Positions 14,146 through 38,495 of a stretch of 64,000 nucleotides of DNA are shown in pieces. The position numbers and the translations under genes are program-made. The notes under the pieces are model-generated. The model had not been told where the DNA came from. It ran no database searches and worked only from the letters and a program-made list of their open reading frames with translations. The stretch is taken from the NCBI GenBank assembly GCA_964349675.1, contig CAYGHD010000002.1, positions 4,012 to 68,011 of the forward strand. The letters run 5' to 3'. How positions within the stretch are numbered: the first letter of the stretch is position 1; every line of letters begins with the position of its first letter. The stretch is from an uncultured Candidatus Saccharibacteria bacterium. GTDB lineage: Bacteria; Patescibacteriota; Minisyncoccia; Phycocordibacterales; SBAW01.

Positions 14146-17100
14146 ATGACTCTCTATAAAAACACGGCCTACGCCAAGGGGTTTGCGACTATATCTATAG
14201 GTATTTTGCTGCTGACACCCCTCCTTTCATATGCACAAGAGGCGGCTTTAGATACGCCTGTGCAACAGTCTCCAAGCGCCCCAGTAGAGGAGGTTGCTGC
14301 CCCAGATGCTCCTGCGGCTAGTGCAGAGCCACAAATTGCAGCAGCAAGCACGGCTGAGGTTGCGCGGCCTACCATTGATGCGCCCCAACTTTTTACGCAC
14401 GGGTCGCTGGCGCCAAAAGTTTCAGAAACAACCGGCGCGCTCACTGAGCGTGTCGAGCTGGCATTGCCACCGGGGCGAGGAGGCATGACTCCCGACTTGG
14501 CGCTTGTATATAACAGCCAAGATCGCAAAGACAGCATCGTCGGCTATGGATGGTCGCTTTCAATACCCTATATAGAGCGGCTCAATAAAACAGGGTCTGA
14601 GCGCATGTATGTCGACAACTACTTTAGTGCATCGCAGGGTGGTGAGCTTGTGGCGGCTGTAGAAGCAAATGAATATCGGCAGCGCATCGACGACGGCACG
14701 CTGTATGTTTTTAAAAACAATGTTTGGACTGCGTTTGATAAAAAGGGCATCCGCTATACCTATGGGCAGACCCAAGCAGGGCGGCAATTTGCAGCAGAAG
14801 ATCCTGCAAAAGTAGCGCGGTGGATGCTGCAAGAAATCCGGGACACCAACGATAACCGCATTGTTTATGCCTACGCCAAAGAGGGAAGTACGCTCTATCC
14901 AGCCTCCATTACGTATACCAACAGTGGCGCTACTGCGGGGGCATTTGCTGTGCGTTTTGCCTATGAGGCTCGCCCCGACACATTGGTGTCGCACGCCACG
15001 GGTTTTGCCGTAACGCTGCAAAAACGGCTTAAAGCAGTTACGGTTTTGGCAGAGGGCACGGTGGTGACCAAATATGCCCTTACCTATGTGCCGGGGAACA
15101 ACGGTGTCCGCTCGCTATTGAGCGCGCTGCAGCAGACAGGATACAGCGATGGGGGGCAGCAGCAGCGGCCAGCAATACAATTTACCTACTCGGCAACACC
15201 ACCCACATACACACCCAAAGAAAGCTCCCAGTTGTACAATGCGGCGCACGTCGCTGCAGATGCGGACGGCAACGGTTTGCCCGACTTTGCACTGTCGTAT
15301 CAAAACCCTGTATCTCTACAAAAATGGATGTCCGTAGACCTTAATATGTACTCGGTTGTTGCAAACAGGCTCTACCCAAACATGCCCGAGCATTGGTCTA
15401 TATCCGTAGCAGCGCCAGACAACTACCGGCCAGCAGAGGAGGGAGTGCGGTTTTTTGACGCAAACGGAGATGGAAAAGCAGACATTGTGCGCAGTATACG
15501 TATGCGCGATGGCGAGTTGCGTCAAGCGTACTATCAAAACGAGTCAGTCGGCTCGGGGTTGTCGTGGATCCCAAAACCTAATACAGGACTACCTATATTT
15601 GCATACAACCGCATGCGCAATTCTTATGAAGACGTTACCTACAGCACAGGGCTCTTTGGCAACGTAAATGGTGATGGGTTGGTGGACTATGTCTTTTCAC
15701 TCCCGCAGATTGTCTACTCTGGCCTCGACGGTACCTACTTGCACACCAGCGAGCAGGCTGGGTGGGAGTTTGCGACGAGCACGTTTAGCCCGGTGGCAAC
15801 TATGCCCATAACCACCGACGACACCACCGCATCCCAGCTGGTCGACATCAACAGTGACGGGCTTGATGACTGGATGGTGTCGGCAGGGCCAGCGACGTAC
15901 TTTTGCCTCAATACCGGCACGGGTTGGGAAGCAAATTGTGAAAATGGATGGAAGATAGCCACCACGACGCGCCAGGAGACAGGTTGGGACAAAGGCATCA
16001 GATTTATAGATATGAATGCAGATGGACTGCCAGACTATGTGCGCGCCTACCACATGCCGCAATATCAGTACTTAACGAACGGTGCAAAACCGATAGATAC
16101 GAAAATATATAATTATGTATATCTAAACACCGGCTCTGGCTGGGCAACCAGCACGCTACAAATGCCGTCCTTCATATTTTTAGGGCACCCAACGTCGGTG
16201 AGTTGGGGAGGTGATGTTGAATATGATGAGTATGTTGATTGGAATGGCGATGGATTTTTAGACAGCAGCCATATGCAGAGTGAGGGCATGATACCTGATG
16301 TTTTGACCACAGTAACGTACCCAACCGGCGGGAGCATTGGCGTAACGTACGCATTTTCAACCAAGTCGGGGGAGAACCCAGACCTCGCCTTCCCCATGCT
16401 GTTGGTGACAGACATTACGGTCAATAACGGCCTTGGCCGCAGCGACAAAACAACCTACTCGTATGCGGGAGGTAAGTGGCACATCCCGGGCGATGTGCGC
16501 GAGCGGCGATTTGCAGGCTTTGCCAAAGTCACGGCGGTGGATCCAAACAAAACAGTGGTGACGTATTTTAACCAAGGGGATGCGGTGTCTGGCGATGGAG
16601 AGCAGAGCGACCATGTGGCGCAAATCGGGCGCGCATATCGAGAAGATATACTAAGCCCCTCGGGTGCGCTCGAGCGCAAGACGCTCACGCGCTATCAAAC
16701 GTTTGACCAAAACGGTGCGTACAAAGTGTTGCCAGTGCAAGAAGTGTCACAAGACTACAATCAAAATGATACACATCGAGATGCGGCAAAAACGTATACC
16801 TATGACCCGCTGACGGGGGATTTGCTGCAAGAGGTGCAGTGGGGCGAAGTTGCGGGGTTGGCAAACGGCTCATTTACTGACATGGGCGCGGACACGTACA
16901 CCGCCATCATGCGCTATGCGCCAGGTACGGCAAAGGCGATGCGGGTGCTGGTGAGCGAAACAAAAACTGACAGCGCAGGTAGCAAGCTGGCCGAAGCGAA
17001 GCATTACTACGATGGTTTGCCGTTGGGCAGCGCCACGCGCGGCATGGAGACAAAAACAGAACGCTGGCAGCAGGGCGCTGTGTATAGCACAACGCTGCGC

Positions 17101-19935: not shown

Positions 19936-19941
19936 TACACT

Positions 19942-20196
19942 ATGTCAATTGAATTGATGCTACAAATAATCACTCTAATATTAGGAAGTTGGTTCTCGTA
20001 TACTGGATTTCGAACACTCTTGTCAAAAAAATATTACGTTGATGAGATTGAAGAAACAAGAGGTGAGTCTGTAGAAGACAAATATAAGTCGTTACCATCT
20101 TGGCGAATAATGTTTACAAGATACAGTTATGGTGGACAATGGTTGGTATTCGGATTGGGATTGCTCACGCTTTTCTTTCTGAGTTTATTTAAATAG
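19942..20196 (+). CDS. Putative immunity protein for the RHS toxin C-terminal domain (small 2-TM membrane protein)
   Basis: Starts 7 bp after the RHS stop. Low GC (~35%), matching the toxin tip. Two hydrophobic helices. Confidence 0.4.
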   Translation: MSIELMLQIITLILGSWFSYTGFRTLLSKKYYVDEIEETRGESVEDKYKSLPSWRIMFTRYSYGGQWLVFGLGLLTLFFLSLFK

Positions 20197-20263
20197 TAAA
20201 TCTAAAACTAGAAGACAACTGAATACAAAAAAGAGATAATAGGGCCAGCCACTATCTCCATAA

Positions 20264-20330
20264 CCAGAATACATTGGCCAAGTACACGATGAGGCAAGTG
20301 GATTGCTTTACCTAAATGCGCGGTATTGAG
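20264..20330 (+). repeat. Orphan duplicate of the RHS core junction (IGQVHDEASGLLYLNARY-stop)
   Basis: About 58 nt nearly identical (3 mismatches) to 19208-19265 inside the RHS gene, followed directly by a stop codon. Confidence 0.65.
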
Positions 20331-20341
20331 AATATAAATAA

Positions 20342-20362
20342 GCCGCCCGGAGGCCGGGCGGC
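20342..20362 (-). terminator. Intrinsic terminator for the minus-strand gene ending at 20375
   Basis: gccgcccgg-agg-ccgggcggc hairpin followed by a T-run on the minus strand. Confidence 0.5.
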
Positions 20363-20374
20363 TTGGAAGGGGTG

Positions 20375-20707
20375 TCAGAGTCCAAGGCTGAAGGAAAGAT
20401 AGTACAGCCCGATGCGGATTCTCCGATAGAGCCGATATGCGTGGAGGCCCAGCCATAGGAGCACGTTGATGATGGGTACGGCGTACATGAGCTCCAGCCA
20501 AAAGGGTACCGGCACTTCAAGCCCGAACGCCCGGTAAAATGCGGCCAGCGGCTGGAGCCAAGCGACGCCAGCCGCAGCCAGCATAAACCCCGCTACGCAG
20601 ATGGCCACAAGGCATGTAAAAACGAATACAAAGGCTTTCCAGAATGCCAACCCTGGGTCGTCGTCGTTTGCTGGGGTCACCCCATGCGTGTATTCCATGG
20701 TTCCCAC
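20375..20707 (-). CDS. Hypothetical membrane protein
   Basis: Two to three hydrophobic helices. Last gene of the minus-strand sigma/RND/DedA string. Confidence 0.35.
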   Translation of the reverse strand: MGTMEYTHGVTPANDDDPGLAFWKAFVFVFTCLVAICVAGFMLAAAGVAWLQPLAAFYRAFGLEVPVPFWLELMYAVPIINVLLWLGLHAYRLYRRIRIGLYYLSFSLGL

Positions 20708-20809
20708 GGCGTTTCTCCCTATCTGTGAGACAACAAGATAAAAGCCAAACGGTCTGTCCGCTTTGAGCGTAGCATAGTCAAATACGGCGCACTAGAGGGC
20801 CTCTGGATG

Positions 20810-21376
20810 TTACCCGTGTAAGAGCGCAAGTAGATGCTGCCCGCCCCATACATACACAGCAACCATAACCGACTCGCCGATAAATATGCCGAGCATAAAT
20901 TTGCTAAAGCGTATATTAAGACTGCCTGCCACGTAGCAGATAATGTCGGTGGGGAGAAAGGGGAATGCACTCCAGCTGATAATAATAGGCAGTTCATGTT
21001 TTTGCAGTATCCGCTGCACCCACTGCACGTATTTTTGATACTTGCGTTCAAACATTTCATCCAGCTGCAGTAGTTCAGAAAAAAAGTACACCGATGCGGA
21101 CGATACCATAATCCCGACCATGGTGAGTATAAACAGCGGCAGCGGCTCAAACAGCAAAAGCCCTGCGGCGATAAAATACGTAACCGGTATCAGAGTAAAG
21201 CCGCGGATACACCCAAGGAGTAAAAAAATAGCATACGCCAGATATAGCGACGTGCCGGCGCTCAAGGTCAAGTACTGCTCTATGGCGCCAGGGTAGTACA
21301 GGTATGCAGAAAAGCTGCCCACCAAAAAGAGCAGCCATGCAATGAGAAAAATTCTTCGGATATGGTGGAGCCGCAT
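20810..21376 (-). CDS. DedA/TVP38 (SNARE-associated) family membrane protein
   Basis: Characteristic F...PFLPTDIICYVAG motif and multi-TM topology. Confidence 0.7.
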   Translation of the reverse strand: MRLHHIRRIFLIAWLLFLVGSFSAYLYYPGAIEQYLTLSAGTSLYLAYAIFLLLGCIRGFTLIPVTYFIAAGLLLFEPLPLFILTMVGIMVSSASVYFFSELLQLDEMFERKYQKYVQWVQRILQKHELPIIISWSAFPFLPTDIICYVAGSLNIRFSKFMLGIFIGESVMVAVYVWGGQHLLALLHG

Positions 21377-21417
21377 CGTCTCACTATACCGTACTCAAGC
21401 GGCTTTTGAGGCTCCTA

Positions 21418-24400
21418 TTATTTTGCAGGCACGCCGCTCCCTGGCCAGCGATAAAAGAGCACCGGCACCATCACGAGCGTGAGTATCATGGCAAAGGTAA
21501 GTCCAAACATAATCGTAAATGCCAACGGCCCCCACAGGCTGGATGCCCCGGCAAGCGGTATCATGCCCACGACGGTGGTGATGGTGGTGAGTACAATAGG
21601 GCGCAAGCGCACGGCAGCTGCTTCAACAATGCCTTCTTTAAGTCCCAGATGCGCTTCGTTTTGGAGTTTGTGTATCACCGAGTCGAGCAGGATGATTGCA
21701 TGGTTAATGATCACGCCGGCAAGCGCGATGACGCCAAGGAGCGACGAGAATGAGAGCGCCATGCCCGACAGTGCCAACCCAGCAAGCACGCCGATGAGAG
21801 ACAAGGGGATGGTGAGCAGCAGGTACATGGTGTAGCGGAAGGAGTTAAAGCTCAACACCAAGATGCCGAGCATCAGCGCCATCCCCGCCAAGAGCGCCAG
21901 CCCCATTTCTGCAAACGACTGATTTACATCTTCGCTCTCTCCGCCGTAGTCGGCAGTGACACCAGAGGGCAGGCCTGCTGCGGCGATCTGTTTTTTAAAC
22001 TCATTAGTAACCTCGAGCGCGTTGGCGCCTGTCGCAAGTTTGCTGGTGACGGTAACGACTCGTTTTTGGTCGGTGTGGGTGATGGCTGCACGCGACTCGT
22101 CTGCCGACGCGGTAATGAGCGAGCCAAGGAGCACAGTACCCGTGGGGGTGCTCAGGGGGATTTGCTTGAGACTGTCTATGGTTGTTTTGTTGGTGTCCTC
22201 TGGATGCACATAGGCTGCGTTAAGGTTCATCTTTACCACTACATCAATGTCATCCTGCGGAGTTTTGATGGTGGTTGCGGTTGACCCTGAAACTGCGATG
22301 CGCAGCGCTTGGGCAACTTGGGCAGCACTGAGCCCCACACTGGCTGCTTTGGCACGGTCGACTTCGATGGTAAATTGCGTGCCGTTGTCGCGCACCGATG
22401 ACTGCACGTCGATGGCACCGGGGATGCCTGCAAGCACAATTTCAGCTTTGTTTGCCGCCTCGGTGAGCGCTGGCAGATCGTCGCCGGTAAATGCAATAGA
22501 CACCGGCGTGCCCGATGATGGGCCGCCCGACGCCTCTTCAACGCGTATCGTTGCGGTAGTGACTGCGGCAAGCTCAGTGCGCAACAGCTGCACTATCTCT
22601 GTTGATGTTTTTGAGCGGTCTTTGGGCAACAGTACGGTAATATTGGCCGTTTTTGTGTTGCTCCCGCCGCCACTTTGATTAAAGCTCGATCCTGCGCCGA
22701 CTGTGGTGACAAAAGATTCGACGTAAGGGTTTGTGTACAAAAATTCCTCAACCTCCCGTGTAGATTTGTCGGTCTGGAGCAATGGGGTGCCCTGCAAGCG
22801 CTCAACTTCAATATACACAAAGTCCTGGTCGTCCTGAGGGAAAAACTCTACTTTCACGAGTCCTGCAACGGGCAAGGCAAGCGACAAGACAAACCCAACG
22901 CCAAGGAGCGACAAAAGCCAATTTTGTTTTTTGCGGTCGCTGAGGAAGGCGCGTAAAAAGTTTTTGTACCAGGTCTGCGCGCGCACTGCATACTCCTCTT
23001 GCAGCACTTCTAGGCGGTTTGGCGCGCTGTGTTTGGTAAACAGCAGCGCCAAGAGCGGCACCATGCCCAATGCCACAAAGATGGACGCAACCAGCACAAA
23101 GATGACCGTAAAGGGGATGCTTGATATAAATTTGCCGACGATACCCGAGAGGAAAAAGAGCGGCGCAAACACCGCAATGGTGGCAACCGTGCCGGCGATA
23201 AGTGGCCATGCATACTCGCGTATCGAGGCGACCGCTGCATCGTAGCCATTGCCCAGGCGCGCAAGCCTTGTGTGGATGGCCTCGGTCACCACGATGCCCG
23301 AATCAACTAAAATTCCGATGGCGAGTATGAGCGAGAAGAGCGAAACAAAGTTTATCGTGTTGCCAGAGACATACAGGCCGATAAATGCGATAACAAATGA
23401 AAGGGGGATAGAGAGCGCTGCCACCACTGCCTCTCGCCAGCCGATGGTTATGAGCAGTACCAACAGCACCAACAGGACAGTCTCGAGCCCTACGCGCGTC
23501 AGTTCGGAGAGGTCTTTTTGCACCAGCTCGCCGCTGTTGTAAGACACTACTACTTGCGCGCCCGCGAGCGTTGTTTGCTTTAACTCTTCAAGCCGTGCCA
23601 CCGCCGCATCTGCTATCTGCGTCACATCGCCCCCGCTTTTTTTGTAAATGTTGAGCGTCAGTGCGTTGCTTGCGGGCTCACCGCCGACTGATGCGCGGGA
23701 TATGGTGCTTGGGGGCGCTAGGCCGTCGATGACCGCTGCGACATCTCGCAGATATACCGGGGCGCCTGCGTTGGTTGCCACCACAATGTCTTGGACGCTT
23801 GCCGGGTCGGTGATCTCGCCGGCAAAAGTAAGGGGGTAGTCAATGTCGGCAACAGTGATGCTCCCGATGGGCATCGATACATTTGCGCTCTGCAGTGCTG
23901 CGACCACTTGGTCCATGCGGACTCCGTAGGTAGTGAGCGCCTCTTTGCGCACCACCACTTGCACCTGGTGTTTGCGCGTACCCGACACAACCACTTTCGA
24001 TACGCCAGAGACTTTGCGGAGCTCTGTTTCGAGGTCGTCCCCTAACTTTGCAAACAGGGCGGGGGAGAGGTCTGCCGAGACTGAGACCATCAGTATCGGT
24101 TGATCAGCAAAATTTACTTGGAGCACCTGCGGCTCGTCAGCCTCGTTTGGGAATGTAAGTTTTGCTCGGTCGACGGCGTCTTTTAAGTCTTGGATGGATT
24201 TGTCGATATCTGCTTTTGCAACAAATTGGACGGTTACCGACGACACTCCTTGCCCCGAAGTGGAAGTGATTTTGTCTACGTTTTCAATATTTGCTGCTTC
24301 GCTCTCTATCTCTTTAGTGAGCAGCTGTTCGATGTCTGTGGCAGAGGCGCCGCGCAAGGTACTGACGACGATGCCAATGGGCACCACCACCTCGGGTGCC

Positions 24401-28281: not shown

Positions 28282-28564
28282 AAAATATTTTCGATAATTA
28301 GGGTTACTGAGAGAAGTGTGTCATAAAGCGATTTAACTTGTATTTTGTCAAATTTTATTATATTCTTTATCTGTCGCAACAATATCTCATTTACGGTAGT
28401 ACGCGTAGATTCCGTACGTCTCCAAGAGTCGAGTGCAGTCACCCTAACAGGGCTGCGATGGAGGGGCTTCTACAAGGCGCACTGAGGGAAATTTGCTTCC
28501 AAGGACGTGTTCCGAAGATGTAACCGCCTAACCGTGCTCTTATTTGGTTCTTATACAAAATCAT

Positions 28565-29191
28565 ATGATTAAAAAAATAGGTCTTATCGCTGTGTCCGCT
28601 CTTATGGTCGCTGCACCGTTTGTTGCATCTGCCGATGCGCTTAACCGCCAGCTTGAAGTTGGCATGTCGGGCGCCGATGTGTCGGTGCTCCAGACGTTTC
28701 TTGCAACTGACATAACCCTCTATCCACAACAGTTGGTGACCGGGTACTTTGGTTTTTTGACTAAAGCTGCAGTATCAAACTTCCAAAGCCGCAATGGCAT
28801 CCCTGCTGTTGGCCGCGTTGGCCCACAGACCCTTCCTGTGCTTAACCTCCAGATAGCTGGTGGCATGCAAACCCAGAGTTCTGCTGCGCCAATTATCACG
28901 AGCGTGATGGTTACCACCTATCCAACAAACGCAACTGTGAGTTGGAACACGAATGAATTGTCAAAAGGGGTAGTGTATTACAGCACGAGCCCGCTGACGA
29001 CCTATGAATACCAGAATGCAGTTACGGTAAGCGGCATGACCGCGATGACCGACACTGCACTGCGTGTGTCACAAGCAGTGGTGTTGCCAAACCTTGCGCC
29101 AAACACACTCTACTACTACATGGTCTACACAACAGACCAGGCAGGCAACGTGAGCGTGACATGGCCATCGAGCTTCCAGACGACAAACTAA
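28565..29191 (+). CDS. Secreted peptidoglycan-binding-domain (PG_binding_1) protein with FN3-like C-terminal domain
   Basis: Signal peptide MIKKIGLIAVSALMVAAPFVASA. PG-binding helical repeat GMSGADVSVLQTFLA...FQSRNGIPAVGRVG. Beta-rich NATVSWNT...YYYMVYTTD domain. Confidence 0.65.
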   Translation: MIKKIGLIAVSALMVAAPFVASADALNRQLEVGMSGADVSVLQTFLATDITLYPQQLVTGYFGFLTKAAVSNFQSRNGIPAVGRVGPQTLPVLNLQIAGGMQTQSSAAPIITSVMVTTYPTNATVSWNTNELSKGVVYYSTSPLTTYEYQNAVTVSGMTAMTDTALRVSQAVVLPNLAPNTLYYYMVYTTDQAGNVSVTWPSSFQTTN

Positions 29192-29866: not shown

Positions 29867-30168
29867 TCCGGTGTAGCTCAATGGTAGAGCAGCTCCCTGT
29901 CTAAAGGCAGCCTTTCAGAGGAATCTGAATTGAAAAACGAGGTGAATTCGGGGAAACCCCTCTGGGGCAATCCCGAGCCAAGCTCCAACCACATGTTGGA
30001 GAAGGTGTAGAGACTATCCCGAAAGGGAGTAGCCTTGCAATGTGCAGGGCGAAGCGCCTCGCATCCGACAACTTCTTGTAAGTTGGGATGATGATATAGT
30101 CCACGCCCGCAGCAATGGGGGATTCACGTGTAAGGAGTTGGTTCCAGGTTCGAGTCCTGGCGCCGGAG
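29867..30168 (+). tRNA. tRNA-Asn(GUU) interrupted by a 230-nt intron between anticodon-loop positions 35 and 36
   Basis: 5' exon 29867-29900 is TCCGGTG-TA-GCTC-AATGGTA-GAGC-A-GCTCC-CTGT. 3' exon 30131-30168 is TAA-GGAGT-TGGTT-CCAGG-TTCGAGT-CCTGG-CGCCGGA-G. All four stems pair; U8, A14, GG18-19 and the T-loop are canonical. U1-A72 and G73 are as in bacterial tRNA-Asn. The spliced loop is CUGUUAA. Confidence 0.8.
29901..30130 (+). ncRNA. Group I (IC3-like) self-splicing intron within tRNA-Asn
   Basis: Strong resemblance to the conserved IC3 core of cyanobacterial tRNA-Leu and Azoarcus tRNA-Ile introns: GGGAAACC...CAATCCCGAGCCAAGC...GAGAAGGTGTAGAGACTAT...ATAGTCC. P1 can form between exon CUGU|C and intronic GGCAG with a U.G wobble at the 5' splice site. 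The intron ends in G. Confidence 0.75.
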
Positions 30169-30180
30169 CCGCTGACATAA

Positions 30181-30203
30181 ACCGCCTGCAATGGGCGGTT
30201 TTG
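30181..30203 (+). terminator. Intrinsic terminator downstream of tRNA-Asn
   Basis: accgcc-tgcaat-gggcggt followed by tttt. Confidence 0.5.
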
Positions 30204-30355
30204 TCGTATGCGGCTCCGAGCGAGGAAGTGTGGGACACTTCCGTCCAGAACTCGAACGCCGGAGCGGGCCCCGCGTCAGCAGATGCGGGAGCGAGGCGCG
30301 GCTAGTAAAAAATTTTGTGACGACAAAGTTTTTATGCGGAGCCGAGTCCTGGCGC

Positions 30356-31003
30356 TCAATCTCGAAAATGGGGCCTGACCCCAACTCCTCTCGGCACCAT
30401 TTCCTGTCGTATGTAGGGAGGATTGCCGATGACGTGTGTAAACTTTTGTTCAAACGCGGTGAGGAGGAAGTCGCCCTGAATCAGCCAGGACGCGAGCACA
30501 GTATCGGCTTGCGTCGCGTCGAGGCCATTCTCTTGCAGGATTTTCTTGAGAGTGCCTTTTGTCTTTTCGAATGATTCGATATGAAGTTCAACCGCCCTGA
30601 TACTGTTTTTTAGAAGCTCTGCGGTCGGCTTCAGTTTTTGGTTGCGAAGTGATTCCATCAAACGCTCCACGGCCGGGATAAGAAAATCGCCGTGCCCGAA
30701 CGAGGGTTCGAGGAGGCTCATGAATTGCAATTTCTGCGACGGCCAATATTCAACCAGATCGAGGATAAAATCGGCTACTTCGCGGCGTGTAAAGACCGCT
30801 CCGCGGTCCTCGGTATTAGCCCCGGCGAGTGTCGCAACGGCAGACGCAAGAAGCTCATTTTCGAATGGGAGTCCTATCGTTCGTGCCTTTGTGGTGCTCA
30901 CGTTCATTACACCTATTTTACCACTTTTACTTGCAACAAAGCTACGCCACCTACCCCTTCTGTAGGTGATAAAATGGAACTCCATAGCGACGCGAATGCC
31001 CTC
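30356..31003 (-). pseudogene. Truncated N6-adenine DNA methyltransferase (gamma-class, motif I then motif IV NPPY), lacks target-recognition domain
   Basis: AVFTRREVADFILDLV..LEPSFGHGDFL...IGNPPY, then stop 18 aa later. The truncation point abuts a partial copy of the tRNA 3' end (30338-30350). Confidence 0.55.
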
Positions 31004-31071
31004 GGTCGAGCCGGGGCATTTTCGTTGGTTTACAAAAAAGAAAGGGCGCGACCACTTGGTAGCGCCCAGTT

Positions 31072-32193
31072 TCAAACCGACAACCTTACCGGTTTGTAAG
31101 TGTTGCGAAGATCGGCCGGTGAGAACACGAACTGACCTACGCTGATACGTCCAGAACCGAACCCGGCGATGTAGAGCGAGAGATAGAAATCGTATTTGCG
31201 ATAGTACCGCAGTCCGTACATTTTTACGATCTCGTTTCGATGTCGAACTAGGTTCTCGCGCCACCCGACAAACGTTTTCACGTAGTCTTCGGGAAAGAGC
31301 TCCTGATCGAGTAGATGAAAGATATCCTGCGTGGCTTCTCTGATCTGACCGAGCGTCGGAAGCATTCCGTTCGGGAAGATGTGTTTCTCCGTCCATGGAT
31401 CCATCGTTGCACGCTTATCGCATGCAAGGATGCACTGCATAACAAAGACTCCATCTTTTCGTGCAAGCGAGTCGCACGCTTTTTGGAAGTACTCCCGATA
31501 GTGGCTTGGACCCACATGCTCGATGACGCAAATGGACACGACCGCATCAACCTTGCCACTAAAGTCACGGTAGTCTTGCAGTCGAAACTCCAGAGGTAAA
31601 TCGCGGTACCTTTCTGCAGCGTACTTACGCTGCGTTTGAGATATCGTGAGTCCGATGCCACTAGAGCCATAGTGCTGTCCTGCGTAGCCGAGAAAACCGC
31701 CCCAGCCAGAGCCGATGTCGAGCACCGTCTTACCGGTCCCGAGAAAAGCTTTCCTGCAGATCAAATCCATCTTCTGGTCTTGCGCCTCATCAAGTAACAA
31801 GACGCCATCCCATCGTCCGCACGTGTAGTTGGTCGTGCGGCCGAGTAAGATGTCGAAGAATTGCGGATCCTCATCGTAGTGCACTTCAGCGACTCGTTTC
31901 GAACGAGTACGGTTTTGCGCGTCGATCACGCCGAAGCGGAGTCTCCTCAGCAACACATCAAGGCGAGGTATCCTGAGATGGATGCCAGATTTTATGATTC
32001 GCTCTATAAGTCCAGCGATATCCGAGCAGTTCCACCAGCCATCCATGTAAGAATCGCCGAGGCCAACAGAACCTTGTAAAAGAACACGCCGGTACCATCG
32101 ATTATCCAGGATCTGCGGATCCCATAGATTTGGGCCGTTGATCACTATTCCAGCTGCCCCGAAAAGGCGCTGGATCGCGAACTTCGCAACCAT
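31072..32193 (-). CDS. cfa: Cyclopropane-fatty-acyl-phospholipid synthase-family SAM-dependent methyltransferase
   Basis: VLDIGSGWGGFLGYAGQHYG SAM motif. DAVVSICVIEHVG and the C-terminal region are typical of the CFA/mycolic acid cyclopropane synthase family. Confidence 0.75.
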   Translation of the reverse strand: MVAKFAIQRLFGAAGIVINGPNLWDPQILDNRWYRRVLLQGSVGLGDSYMDGWWNCSDIAGLIERIIKSGIHLRIPRLDVLLRRLRFGVIDAQNRTRSKRVAEVHYDEDPQFFDILLGRTTNYTCGRWDGVLLLDEAQDQKMDLICRKAFLGTGKTVLDIGSGWGGFLGYAGQHYGSSGIGLTISQTQRKYAAERYRDLPLEFRLQDYRDFSGKVDAVVSICVIEHVGPSHYREYFQKACDSLARKDGVFVMQCILACDKRATMDPWTEKHIFPNGMLPTLGQIREATQDIFHLLDQELFPEDYVKTFVGWRENLVRHRNEIVKMYGLRYYRKYDFYLSLYIAGFGSGRISVGQFVFSPADLRNTYKPVRLSV

Positions 32194-32307
32194 CAGAACC
32201 TCCTCAAGGTTGGATTTGTGGACACGATCGTCCGTTGACGAATATACCAAGGAAATTTCTTATCGGCTATCCAGGCATTTTCGTTGGTTTTTTGCTAAGC
32301 TTAGGGC

Positions 32308-32886
32308 ATGGAAATTGGCATTTGGGGAGACAGCATAACTTACGGCGAAAGCGACTCCGAGGCCCTTGGGTGGGTTGGCAGACTGCGGAAATCTACATCT
32401 GTAGACGAAGATAAACAGGTCTACAATCGCGGAATCTGTGGCAACACAACTGAAGATTTACTCAAGCGTTTTAAGGTGGAAGCTGACTCCCTTGAGCCAA
32501 ATATCGTGGTATTTGCTATCGGCATAAACGACTCAAAGTATCCGGTCGGAGAGCAAACAAATAAGATTTCACTTGAGCAGTTTAAGAAAAATATCGAGTC
32601 TCTTTTGCAGCAAGCAAAAGTCTACACGCAGACGATTTTCGTTGTCGGGGCTACGCAAGTTGATGAGGAGGTTGTGTCGCAATGGAAAGATAGCTCGCTC
32701 TTTTACAATGCGGAGATACAAAAATATAACGACGTTTTGAAAGAGACCGCTGCTTCCAGCGGTGTTTCGTATGTGGATGTGTCTGAAGTTTTAGATGCAA
32801 AAACTGATTTGCATGATGGGCTGCACCCAAATGCAAAGGGGTATGAAAAACTTGCGATGGCAATAAAAAGCGAAATTAAAATATGA
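32308..32886 (+). CDS. SGNH/GDSL-family hydrolase
   Basis: GDSITYG block I, GxND block III (AIGINDS) and DGLHPN block V. Confidence 0.7.
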   Translation: MEIGIWGDSITYGESDSEALGWVGRLRKSTSVDEDKQVYNRGICGNTTEDLLKRFKVEADSLEPNIVVFAIGINDSKYPVGEQTNKISLEQFKKNIESLLQQAKVYTQTIFVVGATQVDEEVVSQWKDSSLFYNAEIQKYNDVLKETAASSGVSYVDVSEVLDAKTDLHDGLHPNAKGYEKLAMAIKSEIKI

Positions 32887-33428
32887 ATCTGACTTTTATA
32901 ACCGGAAATGCCGCTAAAGCCGAGCAACTTGGTAAACATTTAGACCACCCTGTAGCTCACAAGAAATTGGACTTACCCGAGATTCAGTCTTTAGACCTGC
33001 ATGAAATTATCGAGCACAAGACCAAGGAAGCGTATAAACAAATTGGCGGCGTAGCACTTGTGGAGGATACCTCCCTTACTTTTAAGGCCTTGGGTAGATT
33101 GCCAGGCCCACTCATAAAGTGGTTTCTTACAGAGTTGGATAATGCAGGGCTCTGTAAACTCTTGGACGGTTACGAGGATAGGTCTGCAGTTGCGGAAGTG
33201 TGTTTCGGTCTTTACGACGGTAAAGAGCTAAAGATGTTCGATGGCAAAGCTCATGGCTCCATCGCTACTGTGCCGCGTGGTGAAAGAGGATTTGGCTGGG
33301 ATCCAGTGTTTATTCCCGAAGGTCACCATAAGACTTGGGGCGAAATGGATCCGGAGGAGCAGAAAGAAACCTCTATGCGTCGTATAGCCCTTAAGAAATT
33401 GGAGGCATATCTCAAACAAAATGGCTAA
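32883..33428 (+). CDS. rdgB: Non-canonical purine NTP pyrophosphatase (RdgB/HAM1 family)
   Basis: FITGNAAK, EDTSL, GFGWDPVFIPEG and SMRRIA motifs. Confidence 0.85.
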   Translation: MNLTFITGNAAKAEQLGKHLDHPVAHKKLDLPEIQSLDLHEIIEHKTKEAYKQIGGVALVEDTSLTFKALGRLPGPLIKWFLTELDNAGLCKLLDGYEDRSAVAEVCFGLYDGKELKMFDGKAHGSIATVPRGERGFGWDPVFIPEGHHKTWGEMDPEEQKETSMRRIALKKLEAYLKQNG

Positions 33429-33756
33429 GACTTACTCAGGCACTATTGTTGAGAGCAGTCTTTCCGACAAAAATGTCCTCGACCAACTCCAAGTAATCAA
33501 AAAATATCCCTCTGGGGGTTGGACTTTGTACGATGTCTTGGTTAACGAGGAGCAGATACCGCAGCTCGCCAAATCTTTGGCGAACGGTCCCTGGTATATC
33601 CACCTGTGGCAGCCCGGGCAAGACGAAGTAAAAGTGATCTTTAAAGATAAAGTTTTTTCTATTAAATATTCCGACAAATCTACCTGGGTTGGCGTGGTCG
33701 CTTACGGAAAGTCCATCGGCATACCGGACGAGCAACTCGACTTCCCAATAAACTAA
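33421..33756 (+). CDS. Hypothetical protein
   Basis: ORF translationally coupled to rdgB. No recognisable motif. Confidence 0.3.
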   Translation: MAKTYSGTIVESSLSDKNVLDQLQVIKKYPSGGWTLYDVLVNEEQIPQLAKSLANGPWYIHLWQPGQDEVKVIFKDKVFSIKYSDKSTWVGVVAYGKSIGIPDEQLDFPIN

Positions 33757-33817
33757 GCACGCAGACTTACGTGAATGCACGCAACTAAACGCCTCTCATT
33801 CACTAAAATCTCGCCTT

Positions 33818-34135
33818 TTAGCGTGAATTGGTCTGCGGCCTTACTCTTTCCATCCACTTCATCGTTTCCTCGTCAAACGGCTCCTCGCCCCGGAGCATTT
33901 TGACGGCAGCCTCCATCTCGTAGGACTTGTAGCCGTTCAAAATAACGGTTCGAAGTTCCTGCGCTGCTCGGAGCTTGGTTAGCAACAAATCGCCTTTGGG
34001 CGATTTTTGCGTTACAAGCCCCAGGCGAGGAAGCAACTTGAGTTGCTTCCGTCCAGGACTCGAAAGGGTTGAGTCTATCGTAGCGAGTTTGTAAAACGAA
34101 GCGAGATACAAAACCCATACTGTTGCTGTAAGCAA
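33818..34135 (-). CDS. Hypothetical protein
   Basis: ORF only. Confidence 0.2.
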   Translation of the reverse strand: MLTATVWVLYLASFYKLATIDSTLSSPGRKQLKLLPRLGLVTQKSPKGDLLLTKLRAAQELRTVILNGYKSYEMEAAVKMLRGEEPFDEETMKWMERVRPQTNSR

Positions 34136-34515
34136 AGAGTCCTATTTTGACGCCAGAATAACTCTTGACCCATTTATATTTTATAAGCACAATACCTCCG
34201 GTATGTGTGTTTCTCTTGGGAGAATAAGGCAATGAAAGACAGTGCAACGGGTGCGTGGTGTGCCCTTTGGTCGGGGGTCAAGGTGTCTGGATGGACGCCT
34301 GCAGCCTTGTTGCTTGTGATGTGCGCCGTGCCCATCGTGCACGGTTGCCTGAGCGAAAGCGGGCCGGCGCTAGAGCCCTGCAGCATCTTTGAGGCAGGGG
34401 ACGCTGGCCGCCTTTGCGCAAAAGCAATCATGATGCGTGGCGGGGGACTACCCTGAGTAAATTATCCAACAACGCGCGATAGACCATTTCCACCCCAGAC
34501 AGCAAAGTCTGGGGT

Positions 34516-34620
34516 ATTTTTTTATTCCCTATACGTCGCCGTGTTATTTTTTATAGCCTCCACACTTTTGGGTACGCACTTTGCACAGGTCTGACCTGTG
34601 CAGCAGGTTCATACGGGGGA
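34516..34620 (+). repeat. Intergenic repeat element, copy A (contains perfect palindrome gcacaggtctgacctgtgc)
   Basis: Shares tttattcc...ttatagcctccac.cttttggg.acgcact.tg.cag.tctgacctg.gcagca...acggggga with copies at 36125-36210 and 37263-37369. Confidence 0.55.
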
Positions 34621-34718
34621 GCCTGTGCTTTACAGAACTATTTTAATGTGATATATTAGTAGGTAGTCGAATCACAGCATGCCCCTCCTGCCGTGTTAGC
34701 ACAACACAGGAGAGAAGA

Positions 34719-35180
34719 ATGACTTTACTAACAGGCCTCGGCATCGACGAGCATGAGGTGAGGTGCTGCCCTGACTGTGGGGCAAGGGAGGTGCGTGTAG
34801 CTGCGGAGAGTCGCAGCCTAAACCACACGCATGGTAGTGCTGTGAAATTGAGTGTTGTGATACCTATCTGGACCTGCAAGGATTGTAGGTTTGCCTACAC
34901 AGATGGGCGCGGACAGCAGATTGAGCAGGAGGCAGTTGAAAGTTTTTTGCAACGTCGGCTATTGCCACACGAAGTGCGTAGTATACGAGTTGTTTTGGGT
35001 TTGTCGCGAGAGCAATTCGCTCTACTGACAGGCTATGGAACGGCGACGATTAAACGCTGGGAAAATGGTACGCTGGTGCAAAACGCATCAGCTGACCGAT
35101 TCTTGCGGTTGATTGCTGACAGTGAAGTGGCACAAAAACTGCTGCGACTCGGAAAGGAGATAGATGCAGCGAATAAATAG
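34719..35180 (+). CDS. MqsA-family zinc-ribbon + XRE-HTH antitoxin-like regulator (orphan; no MqsR-like partner seen)
   Basis: N-terminal CPDCG...CKDC zinc ribbon. C-terminal LGLSREQFALLTGYGTATIKRWENGT HTH, collinear with MqsA. Confidence 0.6.
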   Translation: MTLLTGLGIDEHEVRCCPDCGAREVRVAAESRSLNHTHGSAVKLSVVIPIWTCKDCRFAYTDGRGQQIEQEAVESFLQRRLLPHEVRSIRVVLGLSREQFALLTGYGTATIKRWENGTLVQNASADRFLRLIADSEVAQKLLRLGKEIDAANK

Positions 35181-35272
35181 ATACGACACCCGGTCCACTT
35201 GGCCGGGTTTTCTTTTACCTAAAGTAGGTCCCAACCCCGAGAACTTTTACGGGGGCGTGCTATCTTTCTAGA

Positions 35273-36061
35273 ATGAACGAATTTTCCAAAGAACTCAATG
35301 CAGCAAAAAAGATAGCTCGACAAGCCGGAGAGATAATGCTCAGGTATTTTTCCGACGAACTAATTGTTGAGCGGAAAAATGACGACTCTCCCGTTACGAA
35401 AGCTGATATTGAAATAAATCGTCTTGTTATTGAAGAGTTGGGAAAGCAATTTAACGATGGTATTGTCGGTGAGGAAGAGAGTACTGCGGAGTATGGAATG
35501 GGTCGAAGATGGATATGCGACCCAATTGATGGCACGAGAGCTTTTACTTGGGGTTTGCCAACATCAATGTTTTCGCTTGGACTCGCCATAGACGGAATCC
35601 CAGTGCTGGGCGTTGCATACGACCCTTTCCTTGATCTCCTCTATGAAGCAACAAAAGATAGTGAAAGCCTTTGTAATGGCAAGCCTATCCACGTATCGTC
35701 TGTTGGAATTACAGGTGCCTCAATTGCTGTCTCTGGTAGTCCAGAGAAACTTTTAGACGACCCTTCACAAGCCGCCCTCCTCGCACGTCTCGTCGAGAAA
35801 AAAGTACGTATCGTTGGTTTTAGTGGATCGGTATATCGTGCATGTCTGGTCGCGCGTGGAAGACTTGCCGGTTATGTTGAAAAAAATATAAATACACACG
35901 ACCTTGCTGCTGTGGAAGTTATACTGAAACAAGCGGGTGGCATGATTACTGATTTTGAAGGGAAACAGTTGGATTACAGCAAGGCTTTTAAAGGGGCGGT
36001 TATTTCTAACTCGGTCGTTCATGCGGATCTTTTGGAGTGTGTAGCTGGTCTTGATTGGTAG
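35273..36061 (+). CDS. Inositol monophosphatase family protein (SuhB/CysQ-like)
   Basis: EE..TAEY metal-binding segment, WICDPIDGT motif and C-terminal DxxxGG region. Confidence 0.8.
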   Translation: MNEFSKELNAAKKIARQAGEIMLRYFSDELIVERKNDDSPVTKADIEINRLVIEELGKQFNDGIVGEEESTAEYGMGRRWICDPIDGTRAFTWGLPTSMFSLGLAIDGIPVLGVAYDPFLDLLYEATKDSESLCNGKPIHVSSVGITGASIAVSGSPEKLLDDPSQAALLARLVEKKVRIVGFSGSVYRACLVARGRLAGYVEKNINTHDLAAVEVILKQAGGMITDFEGKQLDYSKAFKGAVISNSVVHADLLECVAGLDW

Positions 36062-36124
36062 AAACTTGACGTTTTAGTCATAATGTGGAACTTCGCAACC
36101 TTAAAGCCGCCTTTCCACAAGGCG

Positions 36125-36210
36125 GCTTTTCTTTTTATTCTATATACACCACCGCTCTAGTCTCTATAGCCTCCACGCTTTTGGGTACACACTTTTGCAA
36201 ACTAGGGGAC
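36125..36210 (+). repeat. Intergenic repeat element, copy B (palindrome deleted), fused to terminator hairpin 36103-36137
   Basis: See copy A. Preceded by aaagccgcc-tttccacaa-ggcggcttt hairpin and T-run. Confidence 0.5.
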
Positions 36211-36692
36211 AGTAGGGGCAGCGCGTTTTCTAGAGGCATAAAAATGTATTCCTCAAGCTCCCCAGTGTCTAGTTTTATTGATGCAATTTGATCGTCGGTT
36301 AGCGTGCCGCCATAGAAGACAAATTTAAGAGAGTCTGGGTATACTCCTTTTTTGTGTGCAAAATATATTCCTACCAGTTGTAGCGTTATCGCGCTCAATC
36401 CAATTTCTTCCCGCGTCTCTCGCAGGGCGCAGTGGAGCGGGGATTCATCTTCGTCGGCTGCTCCGCCAGGCACCAACCATTCTTCCCTGTAATCTGGTTT
36501 AACTACAAGCAATTCGTTTTTGGAGTTAAAAAACAGCACCGCAGTCCCAACCTGTTTCTTGGGCAGCAGGGCGGCATACTCTTCGTCGGTATATTTTTTT
36601 ACCACACGCACATCATAGCATTGAGAAGCCCCGCCCGTTTCTTGTAAGGGAAGAGTCCTGGCGCCGGAGCAAAAGTTGACAATTATTTGCAT
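36135..36692 (-). CDS. NUDIX hydrolase
   Basis: Nudix box GGAADEDESPLHCALRETREEIGL. The start is uncertain: ATG 36692 or a GTG near 36610. Confidence 0.75.
   Translation of the reverse strand: MQIIVNFCSGARTLPLQETGGASQCYDVRVVKKYTDEEYAALLPKKQVGTAVLFFNSKNELLVVKPDYREEWLVPGGAADEDESPLHCALRETREEIGLSAITLQLVGIYFAHKKGVYPDSLKFVFYGGTLTDDQIASIKLDTGELEEYIFMPLENALPLLSPSLQKCVPKSVEAIETRAVVYIE
36653..36670 (+). repeat. 18-bp direct repeat of the tRNA-Asn 3' end (att-like island boundary)
   Basis: gagtcctggcgccggagc is identical to 30152-30169. Confidence 0.55.
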
Positions 36693-36729
36693 TTTGTTTT
36701 AAATATTTTCTGAACAGCATGCTCTGCAA

Positions 36730-37227
36730 ATGCACAGCAGTAAGGAGGAGAAAATGTTTCAGCTTCTGATGAAAAAGTTCTTCGGCGATAAAGATAGAGT
36801 GAGTACAACCGCCCACCTGGAAGAAAAGAGTGGGAATGCCTACATCACGCCTGAGCTTCACCGTGAGATGCTCGCAAAGAAGGCTGCTGTTGCGGAAAGG
36901 CGGGGAGTCTTTAAGCGCACATGCTCTTTTGAAGATTGGCAAAGGCGAGAGTTTGAGCTGCAAACACGCATTAGGACAAACAACCCTATGTCTTTCAAAT
37001 GGGTTGAAGATACGGAAGGAACGCCAGTCGGTTTTCCGTTGTTTGTTTTTCACATCACCATGCATGACATGTTTCCGTCTGCCTGCAACCAGTTTCTAAC
37101 AGAAGAAACTTTGATCGCGGGTCTCAGGTGCAACGCGGTAAGTTGTGGTCGCTTTGTGCAGATCGACAAGCACGAGGGATTCATTGAGGTGCAGCCTCGG
37201 TGGGTCGAAGATCTCGGGGCAGAGTAA
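36730..37227 (+). CDS. Hypothetical protein
   Basis: ORF with a terminator hairpin at 37235-37275. No recognisable domain. Confidence 0.3.
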   Translation: MHSSKEEKMFQLLMKKFFGDKDRVSTTAHLEEKSGNAYITPELHREMLAKKAAVAERRGVFKRTCSFEDWQRREFELQTRIRTNNPMSFKWVEDTEGTPVGFPLFVFHITMHDMFPSACNQFLTEETLIAGLRCNAVSCGRFVQIDKHEGFIEVQPRWVEDLGAE

Positions 37228-37394: not shown

Positions 37395-38495
37395 ATGAAG
37401 ATACTCTTATGGGTCGGAGCAGTTGTTGTGCTGGCAGTGGGAGGGTTGTACGCGTTCAACATATACAGTCCACAGTCTGTTCGTCTGCTGATGCAACAAA
37501 CTGCCGATACAGAGACGGTTGGTGGGCAAAAAAATAGTGCAGCGTCTCCCCAAGACCAAATCCAAGAGGCGCTTCCTGAAGTTGAGGGGACTACTGTGGC
37601 GTCAAACCAAAATGCAACCACGAAAGAAACTATTGACGACAGGGCAACTCCTCCAATTGTTGCAGTGCTTGAAGTTGATTCAGTGAAATCAATAAATCCT
37701 TATGACATAGTCAAAACGTATTTAACAAAATACAAGGACTCAAACGATTTTCTTGCCATTTTTAATTACGGAGGTCCACGAGACCAGTATCATCTCACCG
37801 TCAAAAACAACACAAAAGGTATCTATAATCCAGATGTTGCCAGGGGTGATAGTTCGTCGACGTATGGGAGTAGTGGGACGCTGCTTGGCATTGGTGTTGT
37901 GGGTAACATCAAGCAATACCAATCAGACACACCCATCTTTAATGTCCTCCTGGAGGAAATTTACGCACACTATTGGGGCGTATACATCGGCGATGTCATA
38001 GACAGCACGCACCAGCTCCCGCTTCAAAACACCCTCGCCAGAGCGCATTGGACCACCTGTTTAAATTTTCTCGACAACCCCGATGTGCGATATTGGAAGG
38101 CAAGCCATTGGGAGAAGGTCGGGCAAAACAAATGGAAGTTGCTTTTACCCGATAATCCACTGCCACGGTTCGATCCTATTTTACTGTATCTAATGGGATA
38201 TCTGGATGCGTCAAAAGTTCCTGATGTTGAATTGATCATTCCTGACTCTGGGCAAAAGGCTGCATATTGTAATCAGGGCGAGACTATCGAAGGGACTAGT
38301 CGGATTATTTCAATGAAAGAGATTATTGAGTACCTTGGCCCCCGAGAGCCATATGTGAATACAAAGAGGAATTATTCCATCGGATATATTTTGGTAGTAG
38401 AGCGCGGTACGACCCCCTCGGCCTCGAGTATACAAACTATTGAGCGGGTTGCGGCGGGCTTACCAAAAGTGTTCCAAGATGCAATTACCTACTAA
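37395..38495 (+). CDS. Hypothetical membrane-anchored extracytoplasmic protein
   Basis: Single N-terminal TM helix, then a 340-aa domain with no recognisable motifs. Confidence 0.4.
   Translation: MKILLWVGAVVVLAVGGLYAFNIYSPQSVRLLMQQTADTETVGGQKNSAASPQDQIQEALPEVEGTTVASNQNATTKETIDDRATPPIVAVLEVDSVKSINPYDIVKTYLTKYKDSNDFLAIFNYGGPRDQYHLTVKNNTKGIYNPDVARGDSSSTYGSSGTLLGIGVVGNIKQYQSDTPIFNVLLEEIYAHYWGVYIGDVIDSTHQLPLQNTLARAHWTTCLNFLDNPDVRYWKASHWEKVGQNKWKLLLPDNPLPRFDPILLYLMGYLDASKVPDVELIIPDSGQKAAYCNQGETIEGTSRIISMKEIIEYLGPREPYVNTKRNYSIGYILVVERGTTPSASSIQTIERVAAGLPKVFQDAITY

Follow-up and report, generated by a model that had tools for sequence, protein, structure and literature searches.

How did a heterogeneous set of genes in an ultra-small bacterium come to lie between two exact copies of the 3′ end of a tRNA gene? 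The question is raised by a stretch of 64,000 nt, the window in what follows, from an uncultured Candidatus Saccharibacteria bacterium (assembly GCA_964349675.1, contig CAYGHD010000002.1, positions 4,012–68,011 of the forward strand; GTDB lineage Bacteria; Patescibacteriota; Minisyncoccia; Phycocordibacterales; SBAW01), whose host lineage we refer to as Parcubacteria. A tRNA-Asn gene in this window is followed by an interval of accessory genes, which an earlier note had described, from the letters of the sequence, as an island-like block left by one or more tRNA-targeted integrations, with attachment (att) sites attL and attR. Our analysis bears out the tRNA gene as a hot spot of integration and resolves the interval into several layers. 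We favour, with moderate confidence, serial site-specific integration at the tRNA-Asn segment between the T-loop and the 3′ end, after which the recombinases were lost and deletions occurred. The locus is a familiar kind of tRNA-linked island, made by an ordinary mechanism, in an unusual host.

The split tRNA-Asn gene and the copies of its 3′ end

ARAGORN called no tRNA on the raw 64-kb window because the tRNA-Asn(GUU) gene is split in its anticodon loop by a group I intron. An Rfam scan of the window matched the group I intron model RF00028 at positions 29886–30122 (62.6 bits, E = 1.7e-13), and when 29867–29900 and 30131–30170 are joined, ARAGORN recognises a canonical 74-nt tRNA-Asn(GTT). 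The joined exons are identical to the uninterrupted tRNA-Asn of locus L077, and intron-less genes of other Patescibacteria also match; it is alignment with such genes that sets the exon ends at 29900 and 30131. Exon 1 (29867–29900, + strand) holds the acceptor 5′ strand, the D-arm, the 5′ strand of the anticodon stem and CUGU. The intron of 230 nt (29901–30130, +) lies between U35 and U36, and exon 2 (30131–30170, +) completes the tRNA. The covariance model match, the U that closes the 5′ exon, the G that closes the intron and the canonical form of the ligated exons together identify a group I intron. It is present in 11 of the 24 Patescibacteria loci that have the same tRNA end, and intron-bearing tRNA-Asn genes were found in the window and in L005, L008, L009, L015, L058, L072, L074, L075, L082, L092, L103, L111 and L149.

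Group I introns are known from other bacterial tRNA genes: cyanobacterial tRNA-Leu(UAA) and tRNA-fMet, Azoarcus tRNA-Ile(CAU) and Agrobacterium tRNA-Arg. The intron described here resembles these in its fit to the Rfam group I model, its insertion in the anticodon loop, the U of the 5′ exon and the 3′-terminal G, and in that it hides its tRNA from standard finders. It differs from them in its host, tRNA-Asn(GUU), and in that some copies, those of L111 and L149, contain an open reading frame (ORF) of HNH type (...CANCH..H...). Group I introns in tRNAs of the Candidate Phyla Radiation have been mentioned (PMC8172020). As tRNA finders miss genes split in this way, island callers that rely on them will miss such islands.

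The 18-mer GAGTCCTGGCGCCGGAGC occurs exactly twice in the window, at 30152–30169 within exon 2 and at 36653–36670, as the earlier note had reported. Only 0.06 matches are expected from shuffles, which makes chance recurrence negligible, and neither strand of the window holds a further match at three or fewer mismatches. The 18-mer extends from G57 of the T-loop through the acceptor 3′ strand and the discriminator G to the first C, and its assignment to the 3′ end of tRNA-Asn is secured by the canonical spliced gene and its identity to that of L077. The distal boundary is thus marked by a direct repeat of the tRNA 3′ segment, as in tRNA-linked islands. Searching a collection of species-representative genomes located the 18-mer in 106 loci, most of which are tRNA 3′ ends, the remainder being chance matches in GC-rich coding DNA; it is therefore tRNA-derived and not a dispersed repeat unrelated to the tRNA, a possibility that the earlier note had raised. 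Patescibacteria that carry it in tRNA-Asn include Nomura-, Adler-, Yanofsky-, Jorgensen- and Liptonbacteria, Saccharibacteria and Minisyncoccia; it was not found in IMG/VR. In Streptosporangiales, among them Actinomadura, Planotetraspora, Nonomuraea and relatives, the same 18-mer closes a tRNA whose anticodon is UUG (L004, L006, L010, L017, L018 and about 30 other actinomycete loci), and its sharing between this actinomycete tRNA and the T-arm and acceptor of patescibacterial tRNA-Asn appears to be convergence.

In all, five exact, truncated or decayed copies of the tRNA 3′ end were recognised, at 30152–30169, 30343–30355, 33947–33974, 34137–34158 and 36653–36670, and every one begins at a common position in the T-loop. 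The second, a truncated 13-mer CGAGTCCTGGCGC, and a 9-mer CGCCGGAGC at 30257–30265 had both been seen before; the fragments exist, displaced by 5 nt from the positions previously given (30338–30350 and 30262–30270, respectively). The third copy is the decayed GGTTCGAAGTTCCTGCGCTGCTCGGAGC (+), recognised in the sequence and aligning with the tRNA end of L072, and the fourth is GAGTCCTattttgaCGCCaGAa (+), likewise decayed, which closes the second copy of a non-coding element, E, described below. Ahead of the distal exact copy (+) stands cttgtaagggaa, similar to the right end of E elements. A degenerate, inverted 3′ half of tRNA-Asn (AGGAGTTGGGGTCAGG...TTCGAGATTGAGCGCC; 30356–30392, −) is also present, marked by the inverted repeat I20 (30133–30148/30374–30389); taken alone, this half falls below formal significance.

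The mosaic interval and its counterparts in relatives

The five copies divide the 6.5-kb interval into a mosaic of at least four modules, delimited as E1, X1, E2 with Y, and X2 with a NUDIX hydrolase gene. From the tRNA rightwards the order is E1 with its truncated copy, X1, a decayed tRNA end, E2 with its decayed copy, Y with a NUDIX fragment, X2, the intact NUDIX gene and the exact 18-mer. Block X1 comprises a methyltransferase fragment, a cyclopropane-fatty-acyl-phospholipid (CFA) synthase, an SGNH hydrolase, RdgB and a 111-residue ORF (orf111), ending near 33946; block X2 comprises an MqsA-like regulator and an inositol monophosphatase (IMPase). With this many copies and modules, and with two of the modules being copies of E whose ends mimic the tRNA, a single island with clean attL and attR is not a sufficient description. 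What is found is a tandem series of att-bounded units without mobility genes, like an array of cis-mobilizable elements (CIMEs).

Layering is also evident from a 64-nt fragment of another NUDIX allele, belonging to its 3′ end (34519–34582, −; direct repeat D1). It is 89% identical to the L072 allele and 86% to that of L146, as against 80% to the window's own intact NUDIX gene 1.6 kb away, so that two versions of the tRNA-downstream locus are stacked here. Judged by these identities, the fragment is evidence of a second, partly deleted copy of that locus. The composition of the region differs from that of its flanks, as the earlier note had proposed to check: measured in 5-kb windows, the tetranucleotide correlation with the whole window is lowest at 30–37.5 kb (0.68–0.70), against 0.88–0.95 over most of the window and a lesser dip to 0.77–0.80 at 15–22.5 kb (15001–22500).

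Comparison with relatives reveals that the content of the site varies. A locus 99% identical to the window, L002, has the same arrangement. L072, from a metagenome-assembled genome of Nomurabacteria, is 90% identical over the tRNA and E and 86% over NUDIX; its order is tRNA, E, a copy GAGTCCTatcttGGCGCCGGAGC, one small ORF and NUDIX, which thus lies within about 0.7 kb of the tRNA. The segments corresponding to X1 and X2 (30356–33946 and 34583–36131) are absent from it, its right flank differs, and no tRNA 3′ copy is found on the far side of its NUDIX gene. In L009 the exact tRNA end is followed by a different insert, of five genes and 3.7 kb, then by a decayed tRNA end, E and a copy, with a remnant of the C-terminus of a serine recombinase (tblastn E = 1e-6) after the right copy of E. 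A recombinase abuts the tRNA in L066, whereas the remnant in L009, another lineage, is displaced behind the insert and E, which points to insertion at the L009 tRNA end. We asked whether E itself derives from a serine recombinase gene whose 3′ end had decayed, and rejected this, as the tblastn match in L009 lies only after the right copy of E.

The junction at the right end is old. L146, 81% identical, has the same succession of NUDIX, copy and right flank, its copy being interrupted by six bases; the junction therefore predates any recent event. Moreover, the S30AE–Fmt–PDF gene cluster lies 4.6 kb from the tRNA in L009 and 13.4 kb from it in the window, so the variable region probably runs beyond 36670, and this position, earlier taken as the boundary, is probably not its end. 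A TTGACA-like hexamer starts the sequence to the right of the copies in L146, L072, L009 and L149 as well as at the distal site of the window, which suggests that the left end of a further unit starts at 36671. Here (36676–37227, +) a promoter-like TTGACA-17-TTAAAT precedes a gene for 157 residues (36754–37227), an arrangement whose junction is also present in L146. A further protein of the right flank (37395–38495) has three homologues only. One of them, in L003, a long, non-identical contig, was considered as a possible empty site and rejected, since the right-flank gene is present with no tRNA nearby.

The enzymes that could act at this site are found in related genomes. Large serine recombinases with Resolvase, Recombinase and Zn-ribbon domains converge on the 3′ end of tRNA-Asn and abut it in L005, L008, L066, L075 and L103. 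In L147, the fuller context of the L066 genome, a tyrosine integrase, an HTH_17 protein and a large serine recombinase lie beside the tRNA, the S30AE cluster being on the opposite side. In L149 an intron-containing tRNA-Asn is followed by a 9-kb element whose tyrosine integrase and HTH_17 genes lie beside the tRNA, then by a partial tRNA copy AGGTTCGAATCCTACCCGCGGAGC, and then by a second element with a serine recombinase, a tyrosine integrase and PrimPol. Integrase-bearing elements thus occupy the same tRNA site in the relatives, one of which displays the tandem arrangement directly; a serine recombinase as sole integrase was considered and dropped, because tyrosine integrases occur in the same elements (L147, L149). 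These recombinases, together with the variable content of L072 and L009, uphold the earlier proposal of tRNA-targeted integration, for which the locus is a hot spot.

The serine recombinase ORFs of L066, L075 and L103 read, in the same frame, through the antisense strand of the tRNA-Asn 3′ end (...LRRQDSNLEP...), so that the attachment site itself codes for the C-terminal residues of these proteins.

Elements E and F and the origin of the array

E is a non-coding element present twice in the window. E1 (30171–30355, +; about 185 nt) was delineated by alignment with E2 and the copies of L072 and L009, scores 37 bits with a covariance model and has a fold z-score of −4.3; E2 (33975–34158, +) scores 112.5 bits, with z = −3.6. 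E1 opens with a terminator-like hairpin (30179–30207), followed by an inverted, acceptor-like segment GGCTCCGAGCG corresponding to the acceptor 3′ strand (30212–30222), a GGAAG...CTTCC hairpin (30224–30242), CCAGAACTCGAA, the reverse complement of the T-loop and T-stem (30245–30256), and the 9-mer mentioned above. Two more hairpins and CGGAGCC (30337–30343) precede the truncated tRNA 3′ copy that closes the element. In E2 an inverted T-arm, TTCGAGTCCTGG, lies at 34053–34064 (−). The further copies lie at 4241–4437 (−) in L072 and 2314–2493 (−) in L009.

This architecture is conserved in nine loci, and in an alignment of just five sequences, compensatory changes affect 15 of the 30 predicted pairs. 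Between E1 and the L072 copy, one G–C to A–T double change and two wobble changes fit the + strand only; over the five-sequence alignment, the counts of G·U against A·C gave no clear strand signal. Fold z-scores range from −3.5 to −9.9 relative to shuffles, and the + strand is the more stable. The covariance model R1, trained on five sequences, a small sample, recovers both copies of the window and copies in L009, L072, L111, L118, L122, L127/L132, L138 and, in part, L145, and finds nothing in 24 other Patescibacteria loci. Compensatory support and covariance-model recovery, each drawn from five sequences, thus identify a structured family. No family of Rfam 15 corresponds to it, either in a gathering-threshold scan of the window and seven loci or in an E-value scan of E1, which gave chance-level hits only, and the single IMG/VR match to the E core lies by chance inside a coding region. 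We regard E as an undescribed structured non-coding component, possibly new.

A search of metagenome contigs with the E core placed E in other tRNA contexts. In L111 it directly follows an intron-containing tRNA-Asn with a different acceptor stem, and in L118, L122, L127/L132 and L138 it follows a tRNA-Ile(GAU) downstream of 16S rRNA. The left, inverted acceptor-like copy matches the resident tRNA in each case seen, as does the right-end copy in L118: the sequences are GCGCGTG/CACGCGC at tRNA-Ile and, for the inverted left copy of L111, whose right end is off the locus, TCCGCGA. The copies that close E share an insertion of 5–6 nt (TAT.T) at the junction of T-stem and acceptor. At tRNA-Ile we also find a second non-coding cassette, F, of about 110–130 nt (GGGGAGCATGAGCAAGCCAACTG...), bounded by tRNA-Ile 3′-end copies (L118, 311 to about 440; L138, 957–1067, reverse strand). 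L118 has the order tRNA-Ile, E, exact copy, F, decayed copy, and L138 the order tRNA-Ile, F, exact copy, E, decayed copy; in both, the cassette nearer the tRNA is followed by an exact 18-nt copy and the farther one by a decayed copy. Such a swap would be expected if the cassettes had inserted independently at the tRNA end, the most recent lying beside the tRNA.

These observations can be ordered as follows. The attachment site in this Parcubacteria lineage would be the 3′ part of tRNA-Asn, from T-loop to discriminator. An incoming element would bring its own copy of this segment, and its integration would therefore rebuild the tRNA while pushing the old 3′ end and all earlier inserts downstream. 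The window may then be the end state of several integrations and their subsequent decay, in which the recombinase genes were lost and deletions cut the methyltransferase and one of the NUDIX copies. We infer that recombination created these particular junctions, in an order of events such as that outlined, through a recombinase that may have been of the tyrosine or the large serine class. The remaining array resembles a cis-mobilizable, integrase-less unit that could move only with a recombinase supplied in trans.

Several results weigh against serial integration. No recombinase gene or remnant was found in the block or elsewhere in the 64 kb by Pfam, the gene table of L002 or tblastn; in particular, tblastn with proteins of related elements (six large serine recombinases, three tyrosine integrases, HTH_17, PrimPol and AAA_25) returned nothing in the block at E ≤ 1. 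The earlier statement that the integrase is missing is thus borne out, with no tyrosine or serine recombinase remnant detectable, and the integrase expected inside an island is lacking. None of the relatives examined supplies the empty site that had been looked for, a tRNA joined directly to 36671. The shift in GC is slight (0.489 in the interval against 0.516), and several of the decayed copies are recognisable by alignment to relatives only, not by score. Across the distal junction of L146, the 18-mer is conserved at 18 of 18 positions while the flanks are only about 50–60% identical, so the copy is under selection or homogenised and is not a neutral scar. Finally, E combines inverted and direct copies of the tRNA end with compensated hairpins, which a plain att relic does not need.

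The last two points lead to a different account, which we consider rather unlikely: the repeats may be structural parts of a family of non-coding RNA cassettes, E here and F at tRNA-Ile, whose ends mimic the acceptor and T-arm of the tRNA beside them, which could, for instance, let them exploit tRNA processing or protection of the 3′ end. The distal 18-mer would then be a solo right end of E type, and the gene blocks would have arrived by illegitimate or homologous recombination among the repeats, with no integrase. The nine-locus architecture and its compensated pairs, the strand-specific changes between E1 and the L072 copy, the fold stability, the co-variation of the acceptor-like parts with the resident tRNA, the TAT.T insertion and the preservation of the 18-mer in L146 all agree with it. 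Yet a good intrinsic-terminator hairpin opens E right after the tRNA, which makes co-transcription with the tRNA doubtful, no promoter-like site was found before E, and E matches no Rfam family; the reversal of E and F between contigs, in which proximal copies are exact and distal ones decayed, is predicted by serial site-specific insertion, and integrase-bearing elements sit at the same tRNA end. The two accounts are compatible, in that E may be an RNA-encoding cassette moved by integrases. A single recent island filling 30170–36652, which would have inserted with simple attL and attR, parting the tRNA from the gene at 36730, and later have lost its integrase, is improbable. In its favour, the outermost pair of copies is exact, the composition of the interval is atypical, and the inner decayed copies could have come along if a donor composite was mobilised whole; however, L072 already has tRNA, E and NUDIX without X1 or X2, the right-hand junction shared with L146 at 81% is older than any recent event, the second NUDIX allele and the second E require at least two layers, and the copy and TTGACA of the distal site resemble the left boundary of a further cassette, as is also seen in L009, L072, L146 and L149. 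We give very little credence to the copies being decayed tandem duplicates of tRNA-Asn between which unrelated genes were later inserted: duplication of tRNA genes is common, and L127 has a partial second half of tRNA-Ile by the real gene, but all copies in the window begin at the same T-loop point, none keeps the 5′ half, D-arm or intron sequence, and the distal one is preceded by unrelated sequence up to the base before GAGTCC.

E may be a miniature cassette that lacks an integrase, or a gene for a small RNA, or it may be both. Tentatively, as a possibility that we would not rate as probable, E and F could represent a new patescibacterial class of miniature non-coding cassettes (about 110–250 nt), inserted serially at tRNA-Asn and tRNA-Ile by recombinases acting in trans and forming an integron-like, tRNA-anchored array. 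On that reading the two ends of E may reproduce the T-arm and acceptor of the host tRNA, inverted and direct, with a copy of the tRNA 3′ end following each unit. E and F may also encode tRNA-mimicking small RNAs. E could turn out to be a mobile non-coding unit of a new kind, or a small RNA family not known before.

The array shares features with several known systems. Williams is said to have classified, in 2002, the sublocations of integration within tRNA genes. As in tRNA-linked islands whose identity block runs from the T-loop to the tRNA 3′ end, the window has a distal direct repeat, a regenerated tRNA and heterogeneous cargo of atypical composition that varies between relatives, and these relatives have a tyrosine integrase and an Xis-like HTH_17 protein by the same tRNA. 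It departs from typical cases in lacking an integrase, in its several layers, in its intron-split target and in its patescibacterial host; moreover, in six relatives the gene nearest the tRNA is a large serine recombinase, often paired with a tyrosine integrase. CIMEs, and the accretion and mobilisation of integrative and conjugative elements, were reportedly treated for Streptococcus by Pavlovic in 2004 and Bellanger in 2011. Like CIMEs, the block is att-bounded, lacks genes for recombination or transfer and lies at the 3′ end of a gene, where further att-bounded units adjoin it in tandem. In contrast to CIMEs, the inner att copies here are truncated or decayed, so that only the outer pair could still recombine. 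For E and F, an analogy with integron cassette arrays can be drawn: short units close in a palindromic structure resembling a recombination site, their order varies between genomes, and structure is conserved over sequence. However, E and F lack IntI, attI and an attC consensus, a tRNA 3′ end serves as the repeated site, and the cassettes are non-coding.

The tycheposons, which occupy tRNA-anchored islands in Prochlorococcus, offer a further parallel. Successive integrations at one tRNA push older elements inward there, partial tRNA copies lie between elements, degenerate remnants and extra partial tRNAs are scattered through the islands, and most of the recombinases are tyrosine enzymes, with a minority of large serine recombinases (bioRxiv 10.1101/2020.12.28.424599). 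The logic of accretion is the same as in the present locus and in L149, where a partial tRNA copy parts two elements that lie one behind the other. The phylum is different, the window has no replication or packaging genes, and the non-coding cassettes E and F, about 110–250 nt long, are undescribed in that work (bioRxiv 10.1101/2020.12.28.424599). The genomes of Patescibacteria are tiny, and little is understood of how these bacteria exchange genes; our results suggest that they gain accessory genes by the same tRNA-anchored serial integration as free-living bacteria. The present setting combines a Patescibacteria genome, a target tRNA split by a self-splicing intron, recombinases of both the tyrosine and the large serine class, and the E and F cassettes, and it illustrates that partial tRNA copies alone suffice to recognise arrays that have lost their integrase.

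Genes of the interval

The genes named in the earlier note were all confirmed with Pfam and NCBIfam. The first ORF of block X1 (30356–31075, −) is a gamma-class N6-adenine DNA methyltransferase related to the Eco57I/Alw26I type, matching Pfam Eco57I over positions 27–88 of 171 (23.6 bits, below cutoff) and the Alw26I-family model TIGR02987 over positions 3–123 of 523. Full-length homologues have 510–610 residues, and because residues ~76–230 of the ORF align with only their first ~185 residues, the protein is truncated at its C-terminus, as had been noticed before. The S-adenosylmethionine-binding N-terminal part and the NPPY motif are present, and the full catalytic and target-recognition part is not; by these alignments the ORF is a fragment and not a functional member of its type. 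The conserved part ends NPPYIRQEM, homology ceasing about 10 codons past NPPY, and the last ~13 codons and the stop are read from the degenerate inverted tRNA-Asn 3′ half at 30356–30392, with the stop codon (30356–30358) adjoining the 13-mer. No match for the fragment was found in the PDB. The decayed restriction–modification system proposed earlier rests on this one fragment and was not substantiated: no nuclease family was found beside it with Pfam or NCBIfam, and its neighbours are the CFA synthase and the tRNA-derived junction.

The CFA synthase (CMAS; 31072–32250, −) has its likely start at 32193 (Pfam CMAS 2.1e-63; L002 gene call). It is followed by the SGNH/GDSL hydrolase (32308–32886, +; Pfam 1e-29), the Ham1/RdgB non-canonical NTP pyrophosphatase (32883–33428, +; Pfam 2e-41) and orf111 (33421–33756, +), the last gene of X1, which has no family match. 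Module Y (34159–34518, +) consists of a TTGACC promoter-like site, an ORF of 74 residues (34232–34456) and a terminator hairpin (34492–34515). In X2, the MqsA-family antitoxin-like regulator (34719–35180, +; Pfam, and TIGR03830 at 68.9 bits, above cutoff) is an orphan: no ORF of at least 60 residues, and hence no MqsR-like toxin, lies upstream of it in 34583–34718. The IMPase-family protein (35273–36061, +; Pfam 5.3e-46) completes this block. To the left of the tRNA, the protein encoded at 28544–29191 is not on record.

The NUDIX hydrolase (36135–36605, −; Pfam) has 156 residues. Its homologues, which start MPKKYTDEEY, are of the same length, and the true start is therefore the GTG at 36605, with no overlap with the 18-mer. 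It had been listed as accessory cargo, a label that is not supported, the protein belonging to a widespread Parcubacteria family rather than to a typical accessory set. We considered whether NUDIX and the divergent 157-residue neighbour form a conserved pair into which the 18-mer intruded, and rejected this because the two 157-residue proteins compared are unrelated. In L140, L142 and L145 (70–78% identity) NUDIX is clustered with a CTP_transf_like protein, a phosphoribosyltransferase and a PRK-family kinase, in what looks like a cluster for nucleotide or NAD salvage. The NUDIX neighbourhoods of the loci L140–L145 at this level of identity are not syntenic with the window and have no tRNA, save for a partial right end of E in L145; in the window and in L072, NUDIX is separated from the salvage-like cluster and located by the tRNA.

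Two minor observations may be added. A weak tblastn match (E = 0.001) to the PrimPol of the L149 element lies at 60847–60978, close to the end of the window, and may be another mobile-element gene. Within X1, the 17-nt exact direct repeat GGCATTTTCGTTGGTTT (31015–31031 and 32274–32290) flanks the CFA synthase gene, each copy lying shortly upstream of a gene start on the − strand, that of the methyltransferase and that of the CFA synthase, respectively; the pair could represent a leader or operator common to both genes, or else the scar of a duplication.

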